From Trypanosoma brucei (Eukaryota), in the NCBI GenBank assembly GCA_000002445.1, contig CP000066.1:480001-544000 (forward strand): 64,000 nt of DNA, read 5' to 3'. Every line of letters begins with the position of its first letter. Position 1 is the first letter of the stretch. The notes under the pieces were generated by a model. The model saw only the letters and a list, made by a program, of their open reading frames with translations, was not told where the DNA came from and did no database searches. Shown here in pieces: positions 2,049 to 22,735 of the stretch. Position numbers and translations under genes: made by a program.

Positions 2049-3929
2049 TGCTCTCTCCTTGCCATGTGACTTCCCAATCTTTCCCTTTCTGCAGTTCTTC
2101 AGCAGATTTATTTATTCCTTTCCTTTTCCCCTTTTTGCTGTTGTTATAACCTACTATTCTTTTTTTTTTCTTTTATGACCTTAACCGTACCCTCTCTTCA
2201 CTTCCCCTGGAATTAGTTTTACGTACATATAAACAAACACACACACACACAATATATACATATATGTATATGTGTGGTAAGACGTTCAGTGGCGGAGCAG
2301 AAAGAAAAAACAATAGGGGAAAGAGAGCAGAGGTGAATTTAAAAATATACATGCCAATGTGAGATGTTAATCATTCACAAAGATTCATTAAGTAATAAAA
2401 AAAAAAGAAAAGATACTAAGAACGGAGCAGGAAAAGATTCTCGCGGCAGTAAATGACGCAGAAACTGTAAACACGAGGCGCAACCCGAGTGCAGCACTTC
2501 ATTCAACATCAAAAAAGTAAATAAACAAAGGTAATAAAAAGAAGTGCGTTTATTTGGCAGTGGCTTGCAACAATGCGGAACGAACATGAAAAAAAAAAAA
2601 AGGGGGCGCACATGAACAACAACAGTAATAATAATACCAAAAATAATGATCGTAAAAAGCGGAAGTTTTTCTTTTCGTTTGCACGGCCCTTAACCATTCA
2701 TACCCCTCCAAATTGCGCGCCACCCGTTTGTTCAAAAGAAAAAAAGGAGGTAATGGGAAACGGAGGCGGACAAAAGGGAAATAAACCAACAGCAGCGATT
2801 TATGCCCCACCAAATTTTTCAAAAAAAAAAACATAATTTTTTTTGGCTGAAAAAAAAAACATGAAAACATAATGTGAGCCATGTAAAGACATCCTTACGT
2901 GTGTTTGTGTGGGCATCGATGCGCGGTAGAGATGCCATCAACAAAATATAACAAAAAAAGGAGAAAAAAACAGAAAAGTTAATTTGTTGAATTCCCCTTA
3001 TGTGTTTTATCATTTTCACCACGCAGAGTCAGGTCGCAGTAGCGTTCTTTCCTTGCGTCACGCTTCAAAAACCACCTCCACACACATATTTTATGCCATA
3101 TGCACTCCATACGACTATTATTTTCTTTTTTTTTCCCTCACCCCTCCCTCTTTTCCTACACCATTATATTTTTGCGTGTCACTCCTTCATTCAAAAACCC
3201 CTCCCAAACCCGGTCCTAATCACACTTCCCTAACATCATCTTAACTTATTCAAGTGAGTGTGCTGGTGTGTATTTGTATGTGTGTCTATATAACTTTCAT
3301 CACTTGCTTGAAGCTCATCTACAACTTTGTTTTTGTATGTGTATATAATTGTATAAATACTTCGGGCCCCGTTTCACTTGACACACAGGAATTTTTTTTT
3401 CTTTCATTTGCATCGTGCATTCTCCCTATGCTTAATTGTTGTTCGCAATCCTTCATTTATAATTTTGCTCTTTTTTTCTTTTTTTGAACATTCCGTCAAG
3501 ATTCCAGTCCCACTGTCAAGTTCAAAAACAATCACTCTATATGGTCTCGTGTGATACGGATCCCATTCTCAGCGGAATAACAAACATAAATATATGTATT
3601 TTAAAATATATATATATATATAAAGGAAAAAGGGTGATGTGCTCTATGGGTTCCGGTGAAGAATGAGGAAAACCGCTGCCCACACGCATTTCACTGCATA
3701 AGAGCATGAGCACCAATGATATCTATACAAATATATATGTATATATAGATAGATAGATAAACAGATAAATAGATATAGGAAGATATCTCAGATATAAATG
3801 TATCTTTTATTTATAAACGTGTGCGTGCAGGTATATAGTGAAACTACAGGAAAAAAAAACAAAAAAGGTATCGGGGAAAAATAGAGTACACCGTATCATG
3901 GATTAAATCGTTACCAGTTGTCGGTGTGG

Positions 3930-6245
3930 TTATTTTTTACCCCCGTGCCCTTTTGTGGAACTGTCGCTGCCGGAGTGGTTATTGGCATTAACTGATGAAC
4001 CGCTACCACCAGGCGCACTGCTCCCAGACGAGGCGGAGGAATTTGAAGCTGTTGAGTGCGCACCGGCGTGCTGCGAAGATTGTCCACCGTTTCTTCCACT
4101 GGACGAGCGCTTCTTCAACATGCGCTCCGCCTCACGATCCGCCTTTTGTTTATTCCACGCTTCCTTTTTCTCTCGTAACATTTGCCGCACCCCTCGCCCC
4201 TCCAGCACGCGAGGTGTTGGTGGTGATGGAAAGATAACACTCCGACAGTTGCGGGTGCCACAACTGCATGCAAATGGCGGCATACGTTCGTCACATAACG
4301 TGGCATAATCCACGGTTAACTCCTCACCACTATTAATTGTCCGCTTAGAGACAAGCGTCAGCGTCCGGCCCTGCAAGAAATGCATATTGGGTTCACAAGA
4401 GTGACGAATTGCAACTGCCTGATGAAGGCGATCACCACGTAAAATCACACACCCCACCACTGGATCCTCTTCCCCAAGTTTATATACAGCCTGAGCAATA
4501 ACGGGAACAGTGTGGGCCGCATCACTGAAGAGCGCCTTGCCGGGCCGTACGGTTCGGCTCGCTTTACTCGAAAAATTTCCACGAGAATCGTGACTGATGA
4601 AGTACCATGGCCGCCTTGCCTTCTGCTCACGGACTGCGCGGTTCACTGCATTGTCCACAAAGCGGTCGTGATCCCATGATTTATCGCCCACCACCATCAA
4701 GTCCGCGAAGTCACCGCCATCCTTCTCGCTGTACCACATCCCACAGTTTGGGTTGATTTCCAAAAAGTATACATCACCTTTGGGGTCTATACGAAAGTCA
4801 ACACGGCCATATCCGACCCCGTTCATAATGTGTTGGAAAGCATTCCGGGCCATGTCAATAATCCGTGGGTAGGCCGGGTCATTATGAGGAAGAAAACTGC
4901 ATGCCTCATCGTTGCATTCCATGGACCACTTCTTGTCAAAATAGGCAAAGTCATCTTCATTTTGCAAAAAGTTAAACATTAAAGGCCTGAACACCTTGAC
5001 GCCATGCGGACTCCCGCTGTCGGCACATGCGAGAACGGTGCCCTCACGTCCTCGAATAAACTCCTCCACCAGAGCGTGATTGAACTCTTTCAGAAATGTT
5101 CCAACCTTCACTTTCAACTCGTCCAGAGTGTCACAACGGTTATCCTTGTTAATGCCAACAGAAGCGTAACCGGAAAGATGTTTCACGATGACAGGGAACC
5201 GCAGATGACGACATTTCTTCGCCAAACCTTCCGTTTTATCCAAAAGCACAAAGTTAGGTGTATTCACACCGGCCCCGGCAACAAGCACTTTCATATCAAT
5301 CTTGCTGGGTTCAAAACTGCGCGAGTCTGTGCCCGTAAATGCTGCGTTGTGCTCCTCCAGTGCCTCTAATACGTCGATACCAGCACGCTTCTCATCTTTA
5401 CCACCGTCACAAAGGTTAAAGAAAACGTCGAAGTTGTTTGAGGTTACCAATTCTCGCACCTGACGATAGGCATCATCTTTACGCACAGCAACTTCCGTGA
5501 AGGAGTACCTGTTCTTGTCCTTCCGCACCCTGTGAGCGGGGCTGCAGTGGTAATTGTCCATTTCCGCAGTGACAGAATTGGTCCCTTCGTAGCTGCTGTT
5601 GAGGACACATACGCGCAATTGCTTCTTTACGCTCGCCCTTCTCCTGCCTAGAGTTTGAGATACCACCATCCCAGTCGCCGATTTTGTGCAGTGGGAACCA
5701 TTAGCGGATGAAGAGCCCGTTGACATTGCTGTTGCTGTGTTCGTGGTCGATGCACCGGATCTATTCACCACTGACTTGGAAGAGGAAGCTTTTACTTTCT
5801 TCAGCCCAATCACATCTTCTTTTCCTTTTCTTGCTGACCTTCCCCGATTCGATCCCTGCCCTATTTCCACTGCTGTAGTCATCCCTGAGCTTTTACCTGA
5901 CGCACCACCGCCGTTACTCGTACCTGATGCACTCAACAGGGCTGCACTCTTCGTGCCGGGGTTAATGCCATTACCTCCAGGATGAGCGGATGTACCGACG
6001 GCGGCGGGAGGCACGGCGCCTCCAACTGTCAAACAACTTGAAGTACCACCACTTTTACTGCTCACAGAAGAGGCAGCACCACGGGATGGGAGAATAATAG
6101 TTGTGTTGGATGACTTCCATCGCAGGGTGTGAACAGTCACGCAACTCCACACAGCCACTGTTGGGGTTTTGGGTATTAATACATCTGCAAGGGGACATCG
6201 TAAGACTGAAGCCACACCAAAACGTCGAATTGCTATTCTGTACAT
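3930..6245 (-). CDS. ATP-grasp domain + SET-domain methyltransferase fusion protein (771 aa), with an Arg-rich N-terminal presequence-like segment and a Ser/Gly/Lys-rich C-terminal tail.
   Basis: ATP-grasp motifs: PVIVKHLSGYASVGI, LVEEFIRGREGTV, GYGRVDFRIDPKGDVYFLEINPNCGM. SET C-terminal motifs: RHSCEPN and GEELTVDY, followed by post-SET CSCGTRNC. ATG checked at 6243-6245 (reverse complement). Confidence 0.85.
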   Translation of the reverse strand: MYRIAIRRFGVASVLRCPLADVLIPKTPTVAVWSCVTVHTLRWKSSNTTIILPSRGAASSVSSKSGGTSSCLTVGGAVPPAAVGTSAHPGGNGINPGTKSAALLSASGTSNGGGASGKSSGMTTAVEIGQGSNRGRSARKGKEDVIGLKKVKASSSKSVVNRSGASTTNTATAMSTGSSSANGSHCTKSATGMVVSQTLGRRRASVKKQLRVCVLNSSYEGTNSVTAEMDNYHCSPAHRVRKDKNRYSFTEVAVRKDDAYRQVRELVTSNNFDVFFNLCDGGKDEKRAGIDVLEALEEHNAAFTGTDSRSFEPSKIDMKVLVAGAGVNTPNFVLLDKTEGLAKKCRHLRFPVIVKHLSGYASVGINKDNRCDTLDELKVKVGTFLKEFNHALVEEFIRGREGTVLACADSGSPHGVKVFRPLMFNFLQNEDDFAYFDKKWSMECNDEACSFLPHNDPAYPRIIDMARNAFQHIMNGVGYGRVDFRIDPKGDVYFLEINPNCGMWYSEKDGGDFADLMVVGDKSWDHDRFVDNAVNRAVREQKARRPWYFISHDSRGNFSSKASRTVRPGKALFSDAAHTVPVIAQAVYKLGEEDPVVGCVILRGDRLHQAVAIRHSCEPNMHFLQGRTLTLVSKRTINSGEELTVDYATLCDERMPPFACSCGTRNCRSVIFPSPPTPRVLEGRGVRQMLREKKEAWNKQKADREAERMLKKRSSSGRNGGQSSQHAGAHSTASNSSASSGSSAPGGSGSSVNANNHSGSDSSTKGHGGKK

Positions 6246-7183: not shown

Positions 7184-8053
7184 TCACAAGTCACCGAAGA
7201 AACTCGCGTCCTCTAAAAGTTTTCCAACGCGCACGTGGCCCATGAGAGGCGGTCCATCAGGGTCTTCCAAAGAAGCTCGATCTCCGCGCATCCATGTGAA
7301 TTTGAGCACCCTTGAAAAGTTTCTCCCCTCCCAGTTCTTGTTATCGAAGTTTTGTTCAGCGATGTAAACAAGTGAGGGCTGTCGACGCTCCTTCTTCAGT
7401 TCGCGAAGTGCCGCCTCTCCACCAGCAGCAGATACGTCATCTTCCACCTTCACAACCACGGCAACGTGACCGCGTGGAAAGTATGCCTTATAGTCCGAGT
7501 CCCATACCACAACATCGCCCACGAGCGGCGTGTGCCGCTTGCGCCTCTTCGTTGTCGTGACTTCCACCTTATTTTCGAAGTTAATCCGCTCGTATAGACG
7601 GTGCATCCCGCTTGAACCAAAAAACTTGAGGTTCTCCCAGTACAAATCGTGTCTGCTTCCACCGAAATAGACGAAAATTCCTCGGGTGTGTAAAAGGTAG
7701 CGAGCAACAAACTCATCCGCGGTCCAACACAACCCAGTTGGTGCTCGCTTCCACTCGGACCCATACGGCATTTTCTTCATCACTTCATGTGGATAACCAA
7801 TTGTAGTGTAGGCGTATGTCTCTGACAGCCAGTGGCGGTGGCAGTTGCTCATAGAAGGGACGTCTGAACTATAACCTACAACAGAGTCCATGGGAGCGTT
7901 GCAATGCTCAAGTGGGTTGAAATCCATATGCATCCCATGTCTCTTTGATTTCTGCGTGGATCCCCCACCGAGGAGAACGTAGACGAATAGAAAAAGCAGG
8001 AGAGTAGCCGGCACAGCGAGCTGAAACTTCTGTTTTCGGTTTAGAGACACCAT
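7184..8053 (-). CDS. Membrane-anchored CHAP-domain (glutathionylspermidine-amidase-like) cysteine amidase/peptidase, about 290 aa from the first ATG.
   Basis: N-terminal hydrophobic anchor LAVPATLLLFLFVYVLLGG. Catalytic Cys context GLCWTADEFVARYLLH matches the Gsp-amidase/trypanothione-synthetase amidase pattern C..EF..R.LL. His motif PRGHVAVVV. The ORF track extends to 8278 through a tat-repeat, translated as YYYY. The first ATG (MVSLNRK) was checked at 8051-8053 (reverse complement). Confidence 0.7.
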   Translation of the reverse strand: MVSLNRKQKFQLAVPATLLLFLFVYVLLGGGSTQKSKRHGMHMDFNPLEHCNAPMDSVVGYSSDVPSMSNCHRHWLSETYAYTTIGYPHEVMKKMPYGSEWKRAPTGLCWTADEFVARYLLHTRGIFVYFGGSRHDLYWENLKFFGSSGMHRLYERINFENKVEVTTTKRRKRHTPLVGDVVVWDSDYKAYFPRGHVAVVVKVEDDVSAAGGEAALRELKKERRQPSLVYIAEQNFDNKNWEGRNFSRVLKFTWMRGDRASLEDPDGPPLMGHVRVGKLLEDASFFGDL

Positions 8054-8403
8054 TTGTGGCGTGATTTGTTGATTCGCGTCCTTTACAAAATAATAATAAT
8101 AACAATACCAATGCCAATGCCAATAAGGTTTTATAGCCCTCCCGTGAAAGGATGGAAGAAAGATAGAAAGAAGAGCATTGACAGAAACGTGCCAACAGGA
8201 AAGAACCCGATCATCGGACACACAGAATGTACCGCTGAAGCGATATAGTAGGTAAAAAGTGCGAGACACAAATGGCAAAAAAAATTTTCAAAGTTCGTAT
8301 GATGGGAAAAGGTGTAAAACATGTGAAATCCTCCCCACATTCATCTGATTATTGCGCCGTACATCAGACCAGTAGACTGCCGCCGATTTTCTCCACGCAC
8401 CAA

Positions 8404-11807: not shown

Positions 11808-12066
11808 TACACCTAAGTGTTTTATGGCAGTACCCGACCAAACAGACGTTACAGTTTCAACGAAAATAACAGTACAGTGACGACAAATTGTGTTGTGGTA
11901 AAGAGACGATAAAACCTTGCAGAAGCACTACGAAAGTTAAGCGATAACGACTAAATAACTAATGGAGCGGAACCACAATAGCAAAAACACGAGCCAGTTG
12001 TGGTATCTCCGATATTCCTATCAAAACAAACTCTTCAGCTTCGACTGCCCCCACCGGAGCTACGCA

Positions 12067-12091
12067 AATATATATATATATATATATATAT
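12067..12091. repeat. (TA)n microsatellite.
   Basis: atatatatatatatatatatatat seen directly. Similar (TA)n tracts occur at 3603-3620, 6471-6491, 16984-17008, 19018-19036, 33443-33461, 37197-37216, 59673-59698 (followed by (ATTT)n 59699-59728) and 60192-60235. Confidence 0.9.
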
Positions 12092-12792
12092 GCGTGCGGG
12101 TGCTCGTGTTTATGTATGTATGTATATATGTGTATTAATTTAAAAATAAAGAAATGGCTTTTAGGGTTACTACTATTTTCCCCCCTTTGAAAGTCGGAAG
12201 AATGTCCTCCACCCTATTATCTTTACAACTGGAACCCCCTGGTACGAACCCCACTAGATTTCGTGGGGCGAACCGTGTCTTCGTTCGAAGTGAAATGATG
12301 TGTAACGAGAAAAAGGGGGGAAAGCGGAAAAAATTAGATAATAGTTTAGAGGAATTGTACACACGAGTTAGGCGGGGAGATAGTGTGCACAAACACTCAC
12401 TCTCTCTCCCTCTCTCTCACACACACACATACATACACGCATTGACCGGTACAGCACATGCCAATTTGCGTAAGATTTGTGGTGACAAAAAAAAATAAAT
12501 AAATACATGAGCAGCAAATTGACCTCGTGATTTTTGCACACACTCAAACATCTCTACAGCGGAACATACCCGCCCATGTTCTATTCTCACCTTTTTTTTT
12601 GTGTTGCTCATCTCATATTTCATTTCGCTCCAGCTTCTCAAGTCACAAAAAAAAAGGTCCCCGCAACTCGATCTCCATCATGTTTGTTTACTTCCCCCCC
12701 CCACACACACACACATCGTCAGCGGCACATTCCGAAGCCTCGTTATGCTTCCGGTGTTGCCCTCAGCGGTGAGGCATAAAGTAGTAAAAATG

Positions 12793-12816
12793 GGAGGAGG
12801 AGGAGGAGGAGGAGGA
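12793..12816. repeat. (GGA)8 trinucleotide repeat in an intergenic region.
   Basis: ggaggaggaggaggaggaggagga seen directly. Confidence 0.9.
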
Positions 12817-13733
12817 CAGTAATGAAAATGGGGAACAGAAGCGGCGTGATATCATATCCTCCCACCACCCCTGGCACTTGTTTCTCCCGACATTAATCGG
12901 CACAACTCAAATCTTCTCGTCTCCTTTGCCACACAACTTCTAAGAGTTCGCGTTACTTTGTTATCCGGTCCCACCCAACCTTACAAATTGCTTTCCCTCT
13001 CAGCGCACCACACCAACATGTAACGAACATCATATACATCAACCATGAAAAAATAAAGGATGTACAGAGGGGAAGGTGAAGCAGGGGGGGGTGAACAAGA
13101 ATTACAAAGAAAAAAACAAATGAGGGTAAAAGAGCAAAAGCCCTATAAAGGAAGAAAAGGGAACATTACTTAACAACGCGGAAAGGAATTGCATCAGCAG
13201 CGGAAATAGAACACGATGCGGAATAAAATTGGTCTCGTAGGAAATGAAAGCGTGAGCATGAGATGGGCATAATTCTATTCTTTTTTCACTTTGTTTTTAA
13301 TTCTCCTTCCGCCTTTTGGTGTACCATTTTTGTTTTTTCTACGAGCACAAGTATAGGATGAACAGAGAGTTAACGCACATAAAAGAATCGGCAAACAATA
13401 AGAAACAAAAAATGATACGCACAAAAGCGAGAATTGACACATCGGCAGCTCCCACTGTCACTTTCTGCAGTACGATTCTCAGACGCAGCGCAAGGTCTTC
13501 TTTTTTCTCCCCTTTCCTCCTTCTCAAGTCCCTACCGGGTCCACAGGTGGCGGCGCGGGCATCATCAAAAACTGCAACTTCCATCCACTTCAGCCTTCAA
13601 CGTTACGGCTGATGTATATTAAAGATGCCTCCGCCCACTCCCTACGTACAACGAACAAAAAACGAATAAAATGGTAAATGTTACATGCTTTTACAGCTTT
13701 TTCTTTGTGTTTCCTTCAACATTCTTCATTCCC

Positions 13734-16337
13734 TTATGCTTCATCTTCTATCTCATCTTCACCTGTGCCAGACGCACGGGCAACATCATTCCCACTAAGT
13801 TCTTCGCTCCCAATAGAGGAAGATGATGAAGAAGCGTTCTTTCGACCTTTGGATACGCTAGAGCTTGACCGAGACGTCCTTTTACTGCTCGATTCTTTGG
13901 ACGATGCACCATCCGCTGAGTCCTTCGCCGCGTCGGCACCGGACGCCTCATCCACAGCCTCGCTCTTTACCGCATCAGAATCTAGCTCATCTACATCCTG
14001 ATCGTTAACATGTTCGTCCTCTACAACCTGTTGCACAGCCTCACCCTTTTCAGATGATGGCGATCTCTCCAGTTCGTCGCCGTACTCGAACTTATCCCCC
14101 TCCAGTTTAGCGGATGATTCGGATTTCTTCGATGATGAGCGGGACTGCTCCGACTCGGTATCTTTCTTTTCAGATGTCTGGGACTTGTCAAGCTCCTCAG
14201 TGTATTCATCCTTCTGTTCATCATCCTCAGGCTTCTTCGATGATGAGCGGGACCGCTCCGACTCGGTATCTTTCTGATCCTCAGCCTCGGTATCTTTCTT
14301 TTCAGATGTCTGGGACTTGTCAAGCTCCTCAGTGTATTCATCCTTCTGTTCATCATCCTCAGGCTTCTTCGATGATGAGCGGGACCGCTCCGACTCGGTA
14401 TCTTTCTGATCCTCAGCCTCGGTATCTTTCTTTTCAGATGTCTGGGACTTGTCAAGCTCCTCAGTGTATTCATCCTTCTGTTCATCATCCTCAGGCTTCT
14501 TCGATGATGAGCGGGACTGCTCCGACTCGGTATCTTTCTTTTCAGATGTCTGGGACTTGTCAAGCTCCTCAGTGTATTCATCCTTCTGTTCATCATCCTC
14601 AGGCTTCTTCGATGATGAGCGGGACCGCTCCGACTCGGTATCTTTCTGATCCTCAGCCTCGGTATCTTTCTTTTCAGATGTCTGGGACTTGTCAAGCTCC
14701 TCAGTGTATTCATCCTTCTGTTCATCATCCTCAGGCTTCTTCGATGATGAGCGGGACCGCTCCGACTCGGTATCTTTCTGATCCTCAGCCTCGGTATCTT
14801 TCTTTTCAGATGTCTGGGACTTGTCAAGCTCCTCAGTGTATTCATCCTTCTGTTCATCATCCTCAGGCTTCTTCGATGATGAGCGGGACCGCTCCGACTC
14901 GGTATCTTTCTGATCCTCAGTGTCAGGATCCTTCTTTCCGGACTCGGAGGCTTCAAATTCGTCACCATAATCATTCTTGGTTGTATCAGCAGTTGGTTCA
15001 TCATCCGTCTTGTCTGCATCATCCTTCGTCAGTTCCTCAGGCTTCTTCGATGATGAGCGGGACCGCTCCGACTCGGTATCTTTCTGATCCTCAGTGTCAG
15101 GATCCTTCTTTCCGGACTCGGAGGCTTCAAATTCGTCACCATAATCATTCTTGGTTGTATCAGCAGTCGGTTCATCATCCGTCTTCTCTCGTCCTTCCCT
15201 GCCGGATCTCTCAGACTTCCTTGACGATGGTCGAGAACGGTCAGATTGAGTGTCCTTCCCATCTTCAGCATCGGTGGTGTCCTGTTGCATCGCTTTTTGA
15301 CTGGCGCTTGCAGATGCAGAGGACGGGCGAGCAGCAGATGCAGGACGGCTATTGCCACCATCCTTCAAAATTTCCTTGCTCGTCGACTGCTCTGTCGAGG
15401 CTGGTTGCGGAGATGCTGTAGAAGGTCTGCTTTCCCTCTTAGCTTCGCTGGGTTGCGCCACACTTGATGTAGAACCCTTCCCAGTTGCAGAGTCTTCCGC
15501 GACTGATGATGAAATTGGGGCCTCGTCTTCGGTCACAGCACCGTGCTTACTGCTTTCAGTTAACCCTCCACCGGACTTCCGGCCGCCAACGGGAGAAGCG
15601 GCTCCTTTGCCCTTCTGTGGTGTGGCGGGTCGGGAAGAGTCCGAATTTAGAGTTTCTCTAATGGTCTTGAGTAATATATTCTTGGGAGGGGACGAAGTTT
15701 TGCCCTTTCCCTGACTGCTGCAGGCACCCGGTCGGCCACCTCGTTGGCCCACTGTATCAGGACGCTTTTGTTTGGGTGGCTTAGGAACTGTCGCCACGGC
15801 GCGTTTCTTGGATCCAGTAGCTCTACTCGACACAGTACGTTGACGCTTCTTCGCAACTTCTTTTCTACCCGATGTAGTCTCTTTCGGGCTGGTCAACTCC
15901 TCGGCCTCAACACGCCTCTGCGTAGCGAATCCCGTCCGGCATGCGAGTTCCTCCAACTCCCTCTGGCGCCGTTCCTCAAATCGCCGGCGAGCCACTTCAC
16001 GCCGATGTTGCTCCAACCGCTTCTGCCGCCTCATCTCTTCCCGGCGCTCGGCCGTTTCACGGATCAACATCTCCCTTCGGGCCCAGTAAGGTGCAAGGTA
16101 TGGATCTTCCAAATCGTTATACGGAGGAAGACTTTGGTCTTGTAGTGGCCCAAGTGTGAATTCTGTTTCTAGGAAGCGCTGAGCGGACTGTGGGCGTAGA
16201 TTACTGTTTACTGTAGATCTTGGTGTAACAACACACAAAGCATTGGTAGCAGCCGGACCATGTGACGCGTAGACGCCCACTCGAGCTGCCTCACCGCCGC
16301 GAGATGAACTCTCCAGTGGGGGGAGCGACTTCGACAT
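13734..16337 (-). CDS. Highly acidic Ser/Glu/Asp/Lys-rich tandem-repeat protein (867 aa) with an RR/EE coiled-coil C-terminal region.
   Basis: One continuous ORF runs from unique N-terminal sequence through six 44/36-aa repeats (KKPEDDEQKDEYTEELDKSQTSEKKDTEAEDQKDTESERSRSSS) and two 58-aa repeats into a unique C-terminal region (RREEMRRQKRLEQHRREVARRRFEERRQRELEEL). ATG checked at 16335-16337 (reverse complement). Confidence 0.8.
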   Translation of the reverse strand: MSKSLPPLESSSRGGEAARVGVYASHGPAATNALCVVTPRSTVNSNLRPQSAQRFLETEFTLGPLQDQSLPPYNDLEDPYLAPYWARREMLIRETAERREEMRRQKRLEQHRREVARRRFEERRQRELEELACRTGFATQRRVEAEELTSPKETTSGRKEVAKKRQRTVSSRATGSKKRAVATVPKPPKQKRPDTVGQRGGRPGACSSQGKGKTSSPPKNILLKTIRETLNSDSSRPATPQKGKGAASPVGGRKSGGGLTESSKHGAVTEDEAPISSSVAEDSATGKGSTSSVAQPSEAKRESRPSTASPQPASTEQSTSKEILKDGGNSRPASAARPSSASASASQKAMQQDTTDAEDGKDTQSDRSRPSSRKSERSGREGREKTDDEPTADTTKNDYGDEFEASESGKKDPDTEDQKDTESERSRSSSKKPEELTKDDADKTDDEPTADTTKNDYGDEFEASESGKKDPDTEDQKDTESERSRSSSKKPEDDEQKDEYTEELDKSQTSEKKDTEAEDQKDTESERSRSSSKKPEDDEQKDEYTEELDKSQTSEKKDTEAEDQKDTESERSRSSSKKPEDDEQKDEYTEELDKSQTSEKKDTESEQSRSSSKKPEDDEQKDEYTEELDKSQTSEKKDTEAEDQKDTESERSRSSSKKPEDDEQKDEYTEELDKSQTSEKKDTEAEDQKDTESERSRSSSKKPEDDEQKDEYTEELDKSQTSEKKDTESEQSRSSSKKSESSAKLEGDKFEYGDELERSPSSEKGEAVQQVVEDEHVNDQDVDELDSDAVKSEAVDEASGADAAKDSADGASSKESSSKRTSRSSSSVSKGRKNASSSSSSIGSEELSGNDVARASGTGEDEIEDEA
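14107..14905. repeat. Tandem array of six in-frame coding repeats (four of 132 nt, two of 108 nt) plus a partial unit.
   Basis: The motif tctttcttttcagatgtctgggacttgtcaagctcctcag... recurs at 14161, 14293, 14425, 14533, 14665 and 14797. That gives periods of 132, 132, 108, 132 and 132 nt, with near-perfect identity between units. Confidence 0.9.
14855..15200. repeat. Two tandem copies of a 174-nt (58-aa) coding repeat adjacent to the 132-nt array.
   Basis: ggtatctttctgatcctcagtgtcaggatccttctttccggactcggaggcttcaaattcgtcaccataatcattcttggttgtatcagcag occurs at 14901 and again at 15075. Confidence 0.8.
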
Positions 16338-19300
16338 GCTTCAAGTAATAAGTCCACTACGCACTATGAGCGTAACCACGGCGGCTCGCACAAGGTTTGG
16401 GTGTAGGTTGCAACTCCACCAACACTTAAATAAATTGCGCAACCAAGTAGGGAGGGAATATTTCTTCTCTTGCTGTACCCCTCTATGCGGTGGCTGAATA
16501 GTTCGTCTGATTCAACAATCGTTGCCTATTAAATTTAAAGTTATATACCTCCTCCCCTCTTCCTTTCGCTCCGGGTTCCCCGCTATCTAATTAAATGTAA
16601 TTGGGAAACAAGAACAGTGGAAGTGCGAACGCTCCCCCAATGCACTCAAATTAAATCGAACCAACTTTTCCCTTCCTTTACTTCCTTTAATAACCTGAGA
16701 TGCGTGTGCAAGGTACTGCAATACTTCCTGGTTTCCTTCCTTGTTTCCTTACTCAGAAAAACTGCTTAGCTTTCCTTCGAGCCCCTTGCGCCTTTACTCT
16801 CTTTTTCGACCACACTTATGTTCTTCCTTTTTGTTTTATCTATTTTTCTGTTGTATGTTAAAAGCATGACCACGCCGGTGATTAGAATTGTTTGCAAAAA
16901 GAAAAAAAAGGTATATACACAGATAGAAAGAGAGAATAGGAAAGGAAAGAGGCAAAAATTGAAGCGAAGACTAAAAAAGACGCATATATATATATATATA
17001 TATATATAATAACAATTAAAGAATACGTAAGGTAAGAGTTAGTGGAGAGACGTGTGTATATGCCCCAACGACTTCAGTGTGAAGGAAGATCAGGAAGAAC
17101 AAGAAAAAAAACGTATTTGAAGTAGAAATAGCACAGAGAGGAGGGAGAAAGGAAAAAAGAGGGATCACAGTTAATGAAACATAAATAAATATATATATAT
17201 ATTTATTTATTTATTGGTGCTGTAGACAGGCAATGCGACTCAGCTCGGCCAAAAAGGAGGGGGGAGGACAAGCAACAAACAAAACGAAACAACAACAACA
17301 ACAATAATAATAATAATAACCAAAAAGTTTAGTAAAGTTTGAAACATGAGTCACCACTCCACCCACAGGTTTGTCATAACAACGGAACTGCTGCGAGACG
17401 CTACAGCACAGAAAAGAAAACGAAAAAAAAACAAAGATACCAGCCGAGAAACAAAAAACAAAACAAAAGAGGTAGCAGGTGGTAACTCCCTCAGCAGTGG
17501 GTACACAAAACAATGACATGCGGCACCGATATTTCAGCCCGATGTACATTTAAAAACATAAATACAATTTTAATGGTAAAGTAAAGAAGACAAAAGAAGT
17601 AAAGTAGAAAAGTAAAAGAATGCATAAATATGAAGATGAGGAACGCAAATACAACAGGAGAAGCAGCACTGAGTAAAAAAGAAAGAAAGGGGAAAAGGGC
17701 ACTCATTCCGACAAAAATGCGGGGGGAACACAATGCAAAATTTTTTTAAAAAAAAAAATGAAGCATCTTTTCTGGCTTCCAACAATGACGGAGGAACAAA
17801 AATGAAGAGCGCCAAACCAAATTAAGAACAGCACAACAAAAAAAAAAAAGAAAACAAATGGCAACATACAAATACGCACACACTTCCCTCCACTCCACTC
17901 CACTCCAGTCCATTTTTGGATACAAACATGGTAACACAAACCACAATAAACAAATGCGCGTAATTTAATTTATTTGCGCAAAAACACGAAAAAAAAAACA
18001 GACGGGGGATGTGGAGGCACCCGGGCCAAAACAGTTATTTCCGCAAAAGAAACCAGCAACCAACAAGATACGAAAAAAAAAAAAAGAGCAAACGGACACT
18101 CGGGCACATATATGCATGTGCTAACGAAAATATTTATGTCTATTTACAAATATTTATATATATGTATGTATCTATGTGCCTGTCTCGGACTCTTTCTTCC
18201 CCTCCCCCTTCTTCCCCTTCGCCTCTTCACTCATTTTTTTTTAAAATTGTTTCGTTTGTTTCTTTGATATTTCACATCACTTATCAAACACAAACCCTCT
18301 CCTCTCTCCCTTTTTCTTTTTGTGTGTATCCTCTCATGGTTTCGCTAAATGCCTTCCTCCTTCCTCTTGTGTTCCCCTCCCAAAAATACACACACACAAA
18401 CACAAAAAAAAAGGGTGGTATTTTTCGCACTCATTTACACTCTTTTGGATTCTTAATGTTCCTTCTCCTCCGCCAACGCGTGAATTAACCTTTCTGAGGC
18501 ACACACAAAAAAAAAACAAAAATACATCTGCTTTCCTCCTTTCATTTCACATACACATTCTCTCTATGAATACAAAGTTAAACAATTTAAGATTCACAAA
18601 TAAAAATAAACAAAAGAATTTACCTTCTGAAAGTTACGTTTGAACCACAGAGCATACAATAAAAGTTTTGGGCATCACCGTGCCGACAAAAACTTTCCTT
18701 TTCGCCATCTCGCAAAATGTAATTCCTCATATTATCCATTGAACCACAGTGAGGCCATCCATATAACTCATTTCTACAAAAACGAGCCGAATGAATAACA
18801 CAAATAACCCACTCCACTCCACCCCCCCCCCAAAAAAAAAAGAAAAAAGGCCGGAGAGAATGAGGAAACACTGACTCAAACATTCACAGGTAATAAAACA
18901 CACCTCAGACATTTGGATGGTTTGATGGTTGTGCCTATCGCATGCTTATGGAGTTTGTTTGTTTGTTTGTTTTTAGGAAAAAAAAAAAAGATCAGACACA
19001 CAAATATTTATAAATTTATATATATATATATATATTTATTTATACGTGACAAGTTGTGAACACGTCCAATTATTTCTTTTTTTTTTTTTGCAGCTCCTTT
19101 CCTATTTCTATCATTATCATTTTTTTTTCTTTTTTCCTTTTAAATTAGCATAACTGATGTACTTTCCTCTTTTTTTTTCCCCCCTTACCATATCGTCATT
19201 CCAGCGACGTTGATCTCAGATATTTTCTTTTGTTTTTTTTTCTCTTATTTCCATCTTTCCTTTTTTTTCTTTTGTTCATTTCACCTCAGCTTTACGTCAT

Positions 19301-20959
19301 TCCCTCATTAACGCAATCTTTAATGAAGGCAGGAGAAAAAAAAATGGAAACACCATACAACAACAACATCGATGATGACAATAAGAGGAAATAAACTGAA
19401 AGCAATAAAAGAAAATAAATCGGAAACAATTTGAAAGATATATGAAATATAAAAAACATAAATGAGACCCAACCACCATCCCCCTCTCCCACCCCAAAAA
19501 AAAAAAAGAAAAAAGAAAAAAAAAGGATCAAAGCAATCATAAAACTGCAGCAGAGCCTCCTCATCTCTCCTCCTTCCTCTACTCTTCAGCCACCTCACCC
19601 ACAACAATGAAGAACTGCATAATTTAACGACAAAATAATAAATAGTCAAAAAAAAAAAATAGAACTGATGAAAAGAGGGAAAAAAAGACAAAAAAAAGAG
19701 AAAGAAAAAGAAAGAGAGGAAATGAGGGAAGGGGATTTATTTAAAAAAAAAAAAAGACGGCCGAATAGAGAGAGCACTGGTTCAGTAAAAGTGCACTCTG
19801 CAACGACTCGGGTGATTAAACAAACAAACAAACAAAAGAAAGAAAAAGGAAACCAAAAATTGAGAGAAAAAAAAGGGAGAAACCCTGTAGATATGAATAC
19901 ATGTGTGTACTTTATTTATTTGTATATATTTGTATTCATTTAAACACATGGTGATATCAGGCGATAAACCCCACACACATACACACGTACACACATAATT
20001 GGAAGAACACTCCCCCTTCTATCAAGCTAAACAGTTAAATGAATGTGTTGGCCATTGTGATGTTTCAGCTTCGGGGAAAGGAAGCAGAACCAGACCAGAA
20101 GATGGGGAAGGAAGAAAAAAAAAAGCACAGAAAGAAATGGCAGCAACACCTCCACTGTACATTTACATAATAATATTCTTCCAATACTCATGAATGTACG
20201 AATACGGAAACATACACACAAACACGAAGAAAATAATAACAAAAAAAAAGCAAACAAAACAGTGTGCAGTGGTCGAACATGATCCACTGGAAAGAGAAAG
20301 AAAGAGAGAAATATGGGGGGGGGGATGCCCTTCATTACCCACTTCGAGGTGATTACATTATCACAATCACTCTTCCTTGTCTTACCAGGTTCGCAACCAC
20401 CGACAAAAACAAAACAAAACAAAACAAATCGCGGCAGGTCCACATCACTTTCCGAACACCCTCAAGTATTCCTGATATTCTCTCACAAATCTTCTTCACA
20501 CATTGCTTAGTTTTCCGGACAATTTGGTTAATATTATCTTCAATATAACTATAACTCCTCTTTTTTGTCATCTTCTCTTTAAACCAACGTAGCGATATGG
20601 AGAAGCCGAATCATAAGCGCCAATCGCTCACATGAACAGCAAACAGTATGGGAGTTTACCGGCACTTTTGTACCTTACATCGGAAGTATAACTTGCATCT
20701 CATTGACATCAACCCCACCCCCACCCTTTTCTACACATGGTAACGGCGCCGCAAAGATGCTGAACAAACAAACAAACAAACGGGCACTAACATGTACAAG
20801 CTCGCATACATACACGTACACATACACATACACATACACAAGCGCACACAAACACGTGAACACGTGAACACATGTCAAAACGTGCCGAGGAACCGAAGCA
20901 TATCCCTTCCCCATATCCATCTCCTGAAGGGTCGGGAAACTTATGATTGCTTTCATGTA

Positions 20960-22735
20960 CTACTGACGCTGCTGGCGTAACGAATTCCCCCACCCCTCAT
21001 GTCCCACACACATGGGTGATGGGGGCGCCAAGTTCGTCACACCGACACCATTGTAATAAGAATAGTGATGATGATTAGGTGACGAGTGTGGAGTGGCGCG
21101 GTGCCCTCCGTAAGGCGAGTGGTAGCCACCTGCGTAAACGTTATTCCAGCAGTGGTTTGTGTTGTCCATATATGTCCCACACCCATTTCCAGGGGCACTG
21201 CATCCACTTGTAGAGTTGTAAGAGTAACCAACGCTGCGTTGAGCTCCATGTTGTATTGGTGATCCCTGACGAGAAGAATCGGCCCAATGTGGTGAGTAAA
21301 TGGTAGGCTGAGCAAGCACAGACAGGAACGGGGGCATGTGACTGCTGTTGGAATGAGTACTGCCGTAATATGGCGTGTGTGGTGTATTTGGAATGGAACA
21401 AGTACCACCACCGCCACCGCAAACATTTGAAGAGCATACATTGGGCATACCCATACTGGGCCCGTGAGGTCCACCGACTGCAGAAAGACCGCCCACTGCA
21501 TATGGTCCCGGGCGCTGGTGCGAAGCGGAAGGCATAGACACCGATACATCCCGTCGCTGATTGCGGGTGACAACAGGAGTACATGCGACAGTGCCCGCCA
21601 TCGTGCCAACCACACCGTGCGCTGTTGTTGGTGTAAAGGACAGAAATCCACACGATTGCTCATCAGCAGCGTTCTGCACCCGCTCCAAACCAAGACGCCC
21701 CAGCGTTGGAATGCCAATTCGTGTGTACTGTGGAGCTAAGTTATCTGCGTCATAATCATCCCAGAGGTGCAACTGCCGCCGCCACACGTTGAGATACCTA
21801 TCGAATGTGCGTTTACTGCAATCATACTCGGGACGTGGTGTCATGGGATGCATTGGATTGCGGAACTCACGATCACAACGGGATGGCACGGCTCTGATGT
21901 AGTTTTCGTAACCCGCCGTTTCTTTGCCGTATTGTACCTGCCTTAGACGCTGCTGAAGACGACGTGCCCGCTCCGTAGTGTCACCACGGTTAAGGTCAGC
22001 GGGATCCAATTCCACGCCACTATAATTTAAGTGCTTCTCCTCCGCTTCTACCATGCGGAGAGCAATGGGGCACTGCAGTGGTTCCGAAGCGTTGTAAACA
22101 CCAGGACCCGCACAGTCGGCATCGTTACCCAAATGAACAATGGTCGCCATACGTTTGTTGCCATTGTTGTTTAAGACACGAGTAGAAACAATGTGTGATG
22201 AACCATTAGTGGTTCCACCACCAGCGACAGCCGTATCGTGTGGTGTTGCAGAATGTGTAACATCCCCGCCGCACATGTCCCCCGCGTGTCCAATGTCACC
22301 TCCGTCCAGCACTGCAATGGGTGAGCGCTGCGAAGAGCACTGGGAAGGAATATACCCACACCGGGCCATCGAATCAGGTGTGCGGGATACCACAGATTTA
22401 TATACCGATGTCACGGGAACGGCAGTTTCCGCAGGGTTGCGTGTGTACCTCTCCAGTTCTGATTCCACACCAAATACAGACGGTGGAATGCTACGATACG
22501 GCTGGTGGACCGTCACCATGGGAGATCGAAGCTGCTGCGACATTGTCGCCGCAACCGATGTTGTCGAAGAGGCACCGTTGCGAATAGGCGTTTGTGAGGT
22601 TGAAATGTCAATCTTTGGGGATCCGGTTCCCAGAGAAGTATCGAACTTCGGATGATTGGCGCCGCTGTAGCTGTTGTTCATCCACACACCGCTTGAGCCC
22701 AACGCCCGCCTAGTGCTGCTCTCAGTCATGGACAT
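20960..22735 (-). CDS. SLBP-like: SLBP-type (histone mRNA stem-loop-binding protein family) RNA-binding protein (591 aa), otherwise low-complexity (Ser/Gly/His/Tyr-rich).
   Basis: Central segment LRQVQYGKETAGYENYIRAVPSRCDREFRNPMHPMTPRPEYDCSKRTFDRYLNVWRRQLHLWDD matches the SLBP RNA-binding-domain signature Q.QYGK.T..Y..Y...VP ... HP.TP ... SKR..D.....WRR.LH.WD. ATG checked at 22733-22735 (reverse complement). Confidence 0.75.
   Translation of the reverse strand: MSMTESSTRRALGSSGVWMNNSYSGANHPKFDTSLGTGSPKIDISTSQTPIRNGASSTTSVAATMSQQLRSPMVTVHQPYRSIPPSVFGVESELERYTRNPAETAVPVTSVYKSVVSRTPDSMARCGYIPSQCSSQRSPIAVLDGGDIGHAGDMCGGDVTHSATPHDTAVAGGGTTNGSSHIVSTRVLNNNGNKRMATIVHLGNDADCAGPGVYNASEPLQCPIALRMVEAEEKHLNYSGVELDPADLNRGDTTERARRLQQRLRQVQYGKETAGYENYIRAVPSRCDREFRNPMHPMTPRPEYDCSKRTFDRYLNVWRRQLHLWDDYDADNLAPQYTRIGIPTLGRLGLERVQNAADEQSCGFLSFTPTTAHGVVGTMAGTVACTPVVTRNQRRDVSVSMPSASHQRPGPYAVGGLSAVGGPHGPSMGMPNVCSSNVCGGGGGTCSIPNTPHTPYYGSTHSNSSHMPPFLSVLAQPTIYSPHWADSSRQGSPIQHGAQRSVGYSYNSTSGCSAPGNGCGTYMDNTNHCWNNVYAGGYHSPYGGHRATPHSSPNHHHYSYYNGVGVTNLAPPSPMCVGHEGWGNSLRQQRQ

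Follow-up and report, generated by a model that had tools for sequence, protein, structure and literature searches.

The question raised by this locus of Trypanosoma brucei is whether a reading frame built around nearly identical tandem repeats encodes a genuine protein and, if so, what the repeats contribute to it. The frame was studied in a stretch of 64,000 nucleotides of contig CP000066.1 (positions 480,001 to 544,000 of the forward strand, assembly GCA_000002445.1), which is referred to as the window and whose numbering is used throughout. The initial annotation had described the frame, from the letters alone, as a repeat-bearing ORF of trypanosomatid origin, and both statements hold: homologues and the position of all large ORFs on one strand place the window in a trypanosomatid, and the 867-aa frame on the minus strand is real, its two 174-nt units being followed by units of 132, 132, 108, 132, 132 and 108 nt, all in frame. 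In coding order, the frame and its repeat region comprise the following features:

13734 to 16337, minus strand: complete ORF of 867 aa including the stop codon (ORF listing and PDB identity)
15048 to 15221, minus strand: first unit of the 174-nt type, residues 373-430, with Y-G-D-E-F-E; identical to the next unit at 156 of 174 positions
14874 to 15047, minus strand: second 174-nt unit, residues 431-488, with Y-G-D-E-F-E; its last ~45 nt are common to the 132-nt units
14130 to 14873, minus strand: six units of 132, 132, 108, 132, 132 and 108 nt, a 372-nt block present twice with no differences
14742 to 14873 and 14610 to 14741, minus strand: 132-nt units (unit map)
14502 to 14609, minus strand: 108-nt unit (unit map)
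14370 to 14501 and 14238 to 14369, minus strand: 132-nt units (unit map)
14130 to 14237, minus strand: 108-nt unit (unit map)
14040 to 14129, minus strand: degenerate relic unit, residues 737-766, with F-E-Y-G-D-E-L-E (sequence and motif scan)
13737 to 14039, minus strand: unique acidic, Ser-rich C-terminal tail, residues 767-867 (sequence and charge segmentation)

This architecture was derived with Tandem Repeats Finder and by mapping each unit exactly along the coding strand. The program reported periods of 132, 108, 240 and 372 nt with 99-100% matches at 14125-14920, as well as a period of 174 nt in 1.9 copies with 98% matches at 14860-15189, where the differences between the two 174-nt units are confined to the first ~36 nt of the unit at 15048-15221. 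All four 132-nt units are mutually 100% identical, as are both 108-nt units, and the shorter type equals the longer one less 24 nt plus a single G>A exchange (Arg>Gln). Hence, the array consists of a 372-nt block (132+132+108) that was duplicated with zero differences, in line with the recent expansion proposed earlier. Each 132/108-nt unit encodes KKPEDDEQKDEYTEELDKSQTSEKKDTE(AEDQKDTE)SE(R/Q)SRSSS with a degenerate Y-T-E-E-L-D, and the 44-aa unit quoted initially agrees exactly with the sequence. Since every unit length is a multiple of three, the array stays in frame, and such an in-frame, block-duplicated arrangement cannot arise by chance. Two other long frames across the region, a plus-strand ORF at 14114-15421 and a minus-strand ORF in another frame at 14021-15022, were rejected as genes, being stop-free by-products of the repeat.

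The number of repeats sets the length of the acidic tail and varies among strains. As had been anticipated, the 132/108-nt units are polymorphic in copy number: six are found in the window, two in T. b. gambiense DAL972 and four, in another order, in GCA_003543875.1, while units of different strains are separated by one substitution only, the synonymous exchange CAG/CAA. The array is also difficult to assemble, again as predicted, given that the contigs of T. congolense and of GCA_001457755.2, the latter being closest to the window (99.85%), both stop within it. Such behaviour raises the possibility that the array of the window is itself a collapsed, expanded or chimeric assembly product and that neither 867 aa nor six plus two units represents the true allele. 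The absence of any difference between the two 372-nt blocks, the deviating unit number or order in every other assembly, the two contigs broken in the array and the count of seven snoRNA copies given for strain TREU927 (Kolev 2010), which equals neither six nor eight, can all be read in this manner; the last of these suggests that the unit number of TREU927 differs from that of the window. On the other hand, the frame of the window is open throughout, the differences between assemblies are what a real minisatellite polymorphism among strains is expected to look like, and the depositors of a structural model used the same 867-aa sequence, although they probably drew on the same reference genome and are hence not independent. 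An assembly artefact is therefore considered unlikely. Single-nucleotide indels, either sequencing errors or real, break the reading frame in the DAL972 and GCA_003543875.1 assemblies and weigh against the protein reading preferred below.

The identity of the product follows from the structural model just mentioned. In PDB entries 9E2G and 9E5C, a chain named 'Starmaker' (9e2g_4T) aligns over 867/867 residues with exact identity (1700 bits), and 14 such chains occur across the two entries, which also contain 21 chains of CFAP20. CFAP20 is an inner-junction protein of doublet microtubules, and its presence thus marks both entries as models of axonemal doublet microtubules. By its description in the literature and by its neighbouring genes, the gene matches Tb927.3.1900 (old identifier Tb03.30p12.690) of T. 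brucei TREU927, whose ORF is said to hold about seven repeated 'snoRNAs', a feature that the gene in the window shows as well. The protein of Tb927.3.1900 was detected in two proteomic analyses according to Kolev 2010, where papers on the flagellar proteome and on the subproteome of the plasma membrane in bloodstream forms are cited. The flagellar association suggested by the initial annotation is thereby supported, both by the chain beside CFAP20 and by the cited flagellar proteome; the gene is a known flagellar gene of T. brucei whose product had already been built into an axonemal doublet model from cryo-EM, and the annotation amounts to its correct rediscovery. The gene identifier is absent from the supplements of the TrypTag, Doran 2025 and axoneme-asymmetry papers. 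Within the window the gene is preceded by SLBP and followed by a 284-aa thioredoxin-like gene, and both neighbours are kept around the T. b. gambiense orthologue on FN554966.1; in T. congolense only SLBP upstream is seen, as the contig stops short within the coding region.

The name of the chain was assigned automatically after zebrafish Starmaker, an otolith matrix protein, with which it has in common an acidic, Ser-rich, repetitive and disordered composition. The name mirrors this likeness of composition only, and the zebrafish protein is secreted and serves biomineralisation, whereas the T. brucei protein is axonemal and shows neither a signal peptide nor a transmembrane segment along its 867 residues. 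Pfam returned no match for the full protein, nor for its N-terminal 204 aa at E-values up to 10.

SnoRNA genes of trypanosomes are typically tandemly repeated. The annotation of a box C/D cluster termed TB3Cs2C1 reportedly goes back to Liang et al. in 2005. In annotations from 2005 to 2010 the present repeats figure as seven copies of this C/D snoRNA inside the ORF, from which it may be asked whether the 132/108-nt array serves a dual use or whether the ORF's central part does not truly code for protein. Kolev 2010 listed seven snoRNAs lying within the Tb927.3.1900 ORF and cited them as expressed, the case was flagged in 2010 as needing investigation, and in Doniger 2010 Tb03.30p12.690 overlaps C/D snoRNA TB3Cs2C1. 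Elements that resemble the required boxes are indeed present on the coding strand, which is the transcribed strand of the gene cluster, each unit featuring AUGAUGA, CUGA from +24 and CUGA at +51, with the phase unchanged across the six units, as exemplified by one of them:

14806 to 14860, minus strand: C/D-box-like element with C-like AUGAUGA, D'-like CUGA at +24 and D-like CUGA at +51 (box scan)

It is probably this succession of AUGAUGA, CUGA and CUGA that underlies the published annotation, under which ACAGAAGGAUGAAUACA and GGAGCUUGACAAGUCCCAGACAU would be the putative guides. The array, tandemly repeated and with a transcribed strand that bears C-like and D-like boxes, thus resembles a box C/D cluster, but it differs from a genuine one in several respects. 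All eight C-like boxes lie at one codon phase and read GAT-GAT-GAA (Asp-Asp-Glu), and the antisense strand carries ten more C-like boxes, which derive from Ser codons. A terminal stem is lacking, the flanks CCUGAG and AAAGAA not being complementary and MFE folds of 66-80 nt leaving the ends unpaired. Moreover, no block of at least 12 nt of the T. brucei unit is kept at the syntenic locus of T. congolense, whose repeats have their own AUGAUGA derived from Tyr-Asp-Asp-Glu and followed by unrelated sequence; the sole substitution between units of different strains is the synonymous CAG/CAA exchange, which falls inside a putative guide; and the unit lengths together with the 24-nt indel preserve the frame of an encoded motif that is conserved across kinetoplastids. 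No Rfam family matches the repeats, as searches of the whole window at gathering thresholds and of 12000-21000 at E-value thresholds yielded only spurious matches of miRNA models on AT/GT microsatellites. The literature on expression is in conflict: against the expression cited by Kolev 2010, cluster TB3Cs2C1 gave no reads in the small-RNP RNA-seq of Michaeli 2012, and the main text of a 2022 paper, including the table that matches guides to Nm sites, names of the TB3Cs series only TB3Cs1C1, TB3Cs3C1 and TB3Cs1C-1, but not TB3Cs2C1. Taken together, a snoRNA cluster in the array appears highly unlikely, and the evidence suggests that the annotation is a codon-derived false positive. Comparison with T. 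congolense was also used to look for a conserved, real snoRNA in the 4.6 kb of intergenic sequence upstream; the only match, polypyrimidine-rich and 39 nt long (20204-20241; fold z-score, -1.8), was rejected.

With the array being read as protein-coding, the remainder of the frame can be divided into an N-terminal module, a basic linker and the acidic tail that contains the repeats:

16089 to 16175, minus strand: conserved extended motif E-F-x-L-G-P-x-Q...L-P-P-Y-N-D-L-E-D-P-x-L-x-P, residues 55-83 (orthologue alignment)
15891 to 16088, minus strand: Arg-rich alpha-helix, residues 84-149, 30% K+R and 23% D+E (AlphaFold2 and composition)
15303 to 15890, minus strand: basic Ser/Thr-rich linker, residues 150-345, pI 10.7 and net charge +20 (charge segmentation), poorly conserved between species

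Conservation from Trypanosoma to Leishmania and Angomonas is limited to the first ~150 residues, i.e. to a module with an invariant MSK-x-LP start, the motif F-x-L-G-P...P-P-Y-N-D-L-E-D-P-x-L-x-x-Y-W-x-R and a 66-residue Arg-rich helix. The motif of residues 55-83 runs on into Y-W-A-R-R, where the helix starts, and is invariant across kinetoplastid orthologues, and 48 N-terminal columns are invariant among T. brucei, T. congolense, T. rangeli and L. infantum. A profile of this module, when searched against 1.84 billion proteins, retrieved essentially kinetoplastid orthologues only (12 matches with E<1e-10), among them those of Porcisia, T. cruzi and Angomonas. Comparison with T. b. gambiense revealed no non-synonymous and two synonymous changes in residues 1-215 versus five and four, respectively, in the remainder. 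According to AlphaFold2, residues 84-149 form one single helix of 66 residues with block-mean pLDDT values of 94-98 over 91-130, while the rest of the protein is of low confidence. The initial annotation had placed an Arg/Glu coiled coil at the C-terminus; this location has to be corrected, as the segment, predicted to be one long single helix, lies near the N-terminus because the gene is read from the minus strand. A Foldseek search with the AlphaFold2 model of the N-terminus against the PDB gave no match, as is expected for a single helix. In the 48-nm and 96-nm doublet-microtubule models of L. tarentolae (9E78, 9Y6S), the N-terminal profile recovers no chain, though Leishmania has an orthologue, which counts against a doublet-bound protein.

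The tail that follows the linker comprises 522 residues with a net charge of -82 by charge segmentation and holds 29 S/T-x-x-D/E sites, as counted in the sequence in view of the initial suggestion of a phosphoprotein. Every repeat in it carries an aromatic-acidic motif, Y-x-D-D/E-F-E, which takes the form Y-T-E-E-L-D in the expanded units of T. brucei and Y-D-D-D-Y-E in T. cruzi. Nine copies are present in the protein of the window and two to five in each orthologue outside T. cruzi, compared with 0.01-0.25 expected in shuffled sequences. This motif is kept across about 10 kinetoplastid lineages, unlike the rest of the repeat.

In trypanosomatids, proteins with tandem repeats frequently act as strong antigens, as the initial annotation also argued, and a tail as highly charged and repetitive as the present one could accordingly owe its importance chiefly to being an immunodominant B-cell antigen that has no structural role. 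Yet the protein is intracellular, axonemal and devoid of a signal peptide, and the conservation of a short motif within otherwise unconserved repeats indicates a cellular function, with which antigenicity would in any case be compatible. A purely antigenic significance of the repeats is hence regarded as improbable.

The reading preferred here, which is held with considerable confidence, is that the product belongs to the flagellar axoneme, is specific to kinetoplastids and is attached to the doublet microtubule. The conserved N-terminal module would be ordered and would dock onto the tubulin lattice, presumably with about 4-5 copies in every 48 nm as suggested by the count of its 14 chains against 21 of CFAP20. 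The acidic Ser/Thr-rich tail, in turn, may form a disordered projection, whose functional element, to judge from the sequence, could be the repeated Y-x-D-D/E-F-E, either recruiting or repelling a partner. The repeats would grow and shrink by unequal recombination or replication slippage, while selection might have to maintain no more than an open frame and a number of motif copies, which would leave the tail free to vary in length. In its mode of action such a protein would resemble microtubule-associated proteins of the MAP7 type, which likewise combine a short basic helical binding region with a long, charged and disordered remainder whose length varies; this likeness concerns the way of working only, and no sequence relation to the T. 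brucei protein was detected, either as a Pfam match or as a fold match.

A further, possible likeness concerns vertebrate fibrous sheath-interacting protein 2 (FSIP2), a human infertility protein. Its N-terminal ~110 residues may share with the T. brucei protein the pattern F-x-L-G-(D)-P ... Y-N-x-L-x-D-P-x-L-x-x-Y-(W/H)-x-R-(K/R), which in FSIP2 reads F-D-L-G-D-P...Y-N-S-L-H-D-P-x-L-x-x-Y-H-x-R-K, and both proteins are flagellar with a very large non-globular remainder. Alignment to the FSIP2 N-terminus by hhalign reached a probability of 91.4% and an E-value of 9e-7 over about 36 columns; the significant HMM matches are bird proteins in which the motif is repeated 4-11 times (identical repeats in gene models), and the HMM score is therefore inflated. 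Only the short motif aligns, whereas the Arg-rich helix and the acidic repeats of the T. brucei protein have no counterpart in FSIP2. A reverse HMM search with the FSIP2 profile did not recover the T. brucei PDB chain, no Pfam family, and thus nothing of the remaining FSIP2 (its Pfam region and giant size), matches the 867-aa protein, and FSIP2 is absent from any solved structure searched. That both proteins are axoneme-anchored tethers carrying very large non-globular parts to extra-axonemal structures, the fibrous sheath of sperm in one case and possibly the paraflagellar rod side in the trypanosome, is a tentative and rather doubtful proposal. If true, the solved T. brucei chain would be the first structural template for the attachment of FSIP2, and the FSIP2-like N-terminal motif would offer a concrete hypothesis for how FSIP2 meets the axoneme, graded here as a weaker lead.

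The published snoRNA annotation, the conserved N-terminal module and the conserved motif within the repeats were all missing from the initial annotation. The 'seven snoRNAs inside an ORF' are most simply explained by Asp-Asp-Glu codons that mimic C boxes in a tandem repeat, and this mimicry makes a case for removing those snoRNA annotations. For the biology of the trypanosome flagellum, the combination of an axonemal tail of strain-variable length with one conserved short motif per repeat suggests a testable interaction motif.

The Starmaker gene (13734-16337, minus strand) encodes an 867-aa protein, which in a PDB sequence search proved identical over its whole length to chain 9e2g_4T, also present in 9e5c. 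The matching molecule is named 'Starmaker' and accounts for 14 chains across 9E2G and 9E5C. A CFAP20 query retrieved chains from both entries as well (21 in total), and hence these represent models of the axonemal doublet microtubule. The suggestion of the initial annotation that the protein belongs to the flagellum is thus supported by an identical chain beside CFAP20. From sequence identity to the T. brucei-group ORF and by elimination of 9E78 and 9Y6S, the 48-nm and 96-nm models of L. tarentolae, we infer that the two entries very probably correspond to the T. brucei structures described by Xia et al. 2025. The chain ratio of 14:21 suggests about 4-5 Starmaker copies per 48 nm. In 9E78 and 9Y6S no chain matches the N-terminal profile of the protein, though Leishmania possesses a clear orthologue (P0004); either the protein is left out of these models or the genera differ in how it associates with the doublet.

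The gene descriptions published by Kolev et al. and Doniger et al. fit the 867-aa ORF, the match being one by description. All 27 gene-like ORFs of at least 200 aa in the window lie on the minus strand, the same one-strand layout as that of a trypanosomatid polycistronic unit, and genes nearby include an SLBP-domain protein and NOT3/5. The same strand carries a 771-aa protein with an unusual pairing of an ATP-grasp (D-Ala-D-Ala ligase C-terminal type) and a SET domain (3930-6245), as well as an ORF whose match to the CHAP (amidase) domain is slightly above the Pfam cut-off (7184-8278) and for which other assemblies annotate a 289-aa orthologue. The closest database relative of Starmaker is a hypothetical protein of T. 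b. gambiense DAL972, and T. congolense, T. rangeli (named 'starmaker') and L. infantum have additional ones.

Conservation across these orthologues is limited to the N-terminus, with 48 invariant columns among four species. It encompasses an invariant MSK-x-LP start, the extended motif E-F-x-L-G-P-x-Q...P-P-Y-N-D-L-E-D-P-x-L-x-P-Y-W-A-R-R and an Arg-rich helix. Pfam holds no model for this region. A profile thereof matched 15 of 1.84 billion proteins, 12 with E<1e-10, essentially kinetoplastid orthologues (Leishmania, Porcisia, T. cruzi, Angomonas and a EukProt fusion). AlphaFold2 predicted residues 84-149 as one helix (block-mean pLDDT 94-98 over 91-130) and no confident structure outside it. 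These residues are encoded by 15891-16088 and, because the gene lies on the minus strand, the Arg/Glu stretch formerly assigned to the C-terminus is in fact N-terminal. A basic, Ser/Thr-rich stretch (net +20) extends over residues 150-345 and an acidic one (33% D+E, 25% S+T, net -82) over residues 346-867; neither a signal peptide nor a membrane segment was found. Compared with the gambiense sequence, residues 1-215 show 2 synonymous changes only, while 5 non-synonymous and 4 synonymous changes lie beyond; these small numbers are consistent with constraint concentrated in the N-terminus. In the Angomonas deanei orthologue (P0010), three DUF7623 domains are inserted between the N-terminal module and K-D-E-Y-D-D-D-D-F-E repeats, and thus the central part of the protein varies between lineages. 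A second, paralogue-like family, comprising P0015 (650 aa, Logan) and residues ~1240-1340 of P0009 (EukProt, 6220 aa), features the variant P-P-Y-N-A-L-S-D-P-N-L-L-P-Y-W-S-R-Q with a long Arg/Glu/Gln helix after it; P0009 combines both motif versions within one predicted protein. The unnamed proteins P0012 and P0014 contain Y-D-D-L-H-D-P-H-L-A-P-F-W-A-R-Q.

The profile search also matched bird proteins in which the N-terminal segment is repeated 4-11 times, copies that inflate the HMM score. In a second search these proved to be 'fibrous sheath-interacting protein 2(-like)' (FSIP2), and bat FSIP2 was included. An independent comparison of a kinetoplastid-only with an FSIP2-only profile aligned 36 columns, spanning F-x-L-G-P ... 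Y-N-x-L-x-D-P-x-L-x-x-Y-x-x-R, at 91% probability (E 9e-7). An HMM search with the FSIP2 profile did not recover the T. brucei chain, and FSIP2 occurs in no solved structure. The likeness is a lead rather than a family assignment.

Tandem Repeats Finder detected periods of 132, 108, 240 and 372 nt at 14125-14920 (99-100% matches) and a 174-nt period at 14860-15189 (1.9 copies, 98% matches). Units were delimited on the coding strand, with the recurring AAGAAGCCTGAGGA as the cutting point.

Repeat units of the Starmaker gene as assembled, each cut at AAGAAGCCTGAGGA
15048-15221, minus strand, 174-like copy
14874-15047, minus strand, 174-nt unit
14742-14873, minus strand, 132-nt unit
14610-14741, minus strand, 132-nt unit
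14502-14609, minus strand, 108-nt unit
14370-14501, minus strand, 132-nt unit
14238-14369, minus strand, 132-nt unit
14130-14237, minus strand, 108-nt unit

This map agrees with the unit lengths (174/132/108 nt) and near-perfect conservation described initially. Every unit length is divisible by three. The four 132-nt units are mutually identical, as are the two 108-nt units; the shorter unit equals the longer one with a single G>A change and without the 24 nt that lie between direct AAAGATACCGAG repeats. The array therefore contains two copies of a 372-nt block that do not differ at any position, in line with the proposed recent expansion. Two long stop-free ORFs in other frames of the array, 435 aa at 14114-15421 (plus strand) and 333 aa at 14021-15022 (minus strand), were rejected as by-products of repetition.

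In T. b. gambiense DAL972 the array consists of 174-, 132- and 108-nt units only and is 504 nt (four units) shorter. Annotators used a joined model to bridge a 1-nt deletion and a 1-nt insertion in this gene; owing to these indels, the annotated protein (P0001, 603 aa) lies partly in an alternative minus frame of the array. Assembly GCA_003543875.1, which also has many small gaps relative to the window outside the array, contains units of 132, 107, 174, 131 and 132 nt in a different order, and indels disrupt the frame. Moreover, a GCA_001457755.2 contig and a T. congolense contig end within the array. Both the copy-number polymorphism and the assembly difficulty anticipated from the sequence are therefore real.

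Repeat sequences are wholly different between species, yet each features an aromatic-acidic motif.

Aromatic-acidic motifs in the repeats
Window ORF: Y-G-D-E-F-E (twice), Y-T-E-E-L-D (six times), Y-G-D-E-L-E
T. congolense: Y-D-D-E-F-E
T. rangeli: Y-P-x-(G/D)-D-D-F-E
Leishmania: Y-G-D-D-D-F-E and related forms
Angomonas: Y-D-D-D-D-F-E
T. cruzi: Y-D-D-D-Y-E

Outside T. cruzi, the motif occurs 2-9 times per protein versus 0.01-0.25 times in composition-preserving shuffles, which suggests that selection keeps the motif rather than the exact repeat.

Tb03.30p12.690, the older identifier of Tb927.3.1900, the published gene matched by description, overlaps the C/D snoRNA TB3Cs2C1 (Doniger et al. 2010). 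Kolev et al. 2010 count seven snoRNAs embedded in the Tb927.3.1900 ORF and cite them as expressed. The coding strand of each 132/108-nt unit reads AUGAUGA, 17 nt, CUGA, 23 nt, CUGA, a layout that probably led a snoRNA finder to call a C/D snoRNA; that the units function as such is nevertheless very unlikely. All eight C-like boxes share one codon phase and equal Asp-Asp-Glu codons, ten further boxes arise on the antisense strand from Ser codons, and no terminal stem can form from the flanks. In T. congolense the repeats carry their own AUGAUGA from Tyr-Asp-Asp-Glu codons, followed by unrelated sequence, and units of different strains are told apart by one substitution only (CAG/CAA), a synonymous one within the putative guide. 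No expression was found for the TB3Cs2C1 cluster (Michaeli et al. 2012), the main text of a 2022 paper, including its Nm guide table, names only TB3Cs1C1, TB3Cs3C1 and TB3Cs1C-1 among TB3Cs snoRNAs, and an Rfam search gave no match. Sub-threshold Rfam matches to mir-3149, mir-297 and mir-1277 on intergenic AT/GT microsatellites (12057-12146, 18096-18185 and 20807-20873) are spurious. The TB3Cs2 name is also applied to H/ACA-like snoRNAs such as TB3Cs2H1, which guides a pseudouridine in helix 69; knock-out of even one of its alleles did not succeed, suggesting lethality to the authors (PMC2613932, PMC4855143, PMC10662448). If TB3Cs2 denotes the same chromosomal cluster, a genuine snoRNA may reside near the Starmaker gene. 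The upstream intergenic region shares with T. congolense (L002) no conserved block besides a 39-nt pyrimidine-rich stretch (20204-20241 versus 2991-3029, 82% identity), which was rejected as an RNA gene and probably serves as a signal for trans-splicing or polyadenylation.

Neither the gene nor the structural placement of its product in the axoneme is new. Useful additions are the conserved repeat motif, the FSIP2-like N-terminal motif and the case for probably dismissing the annotation of snoRNAs embedded in the ORF.
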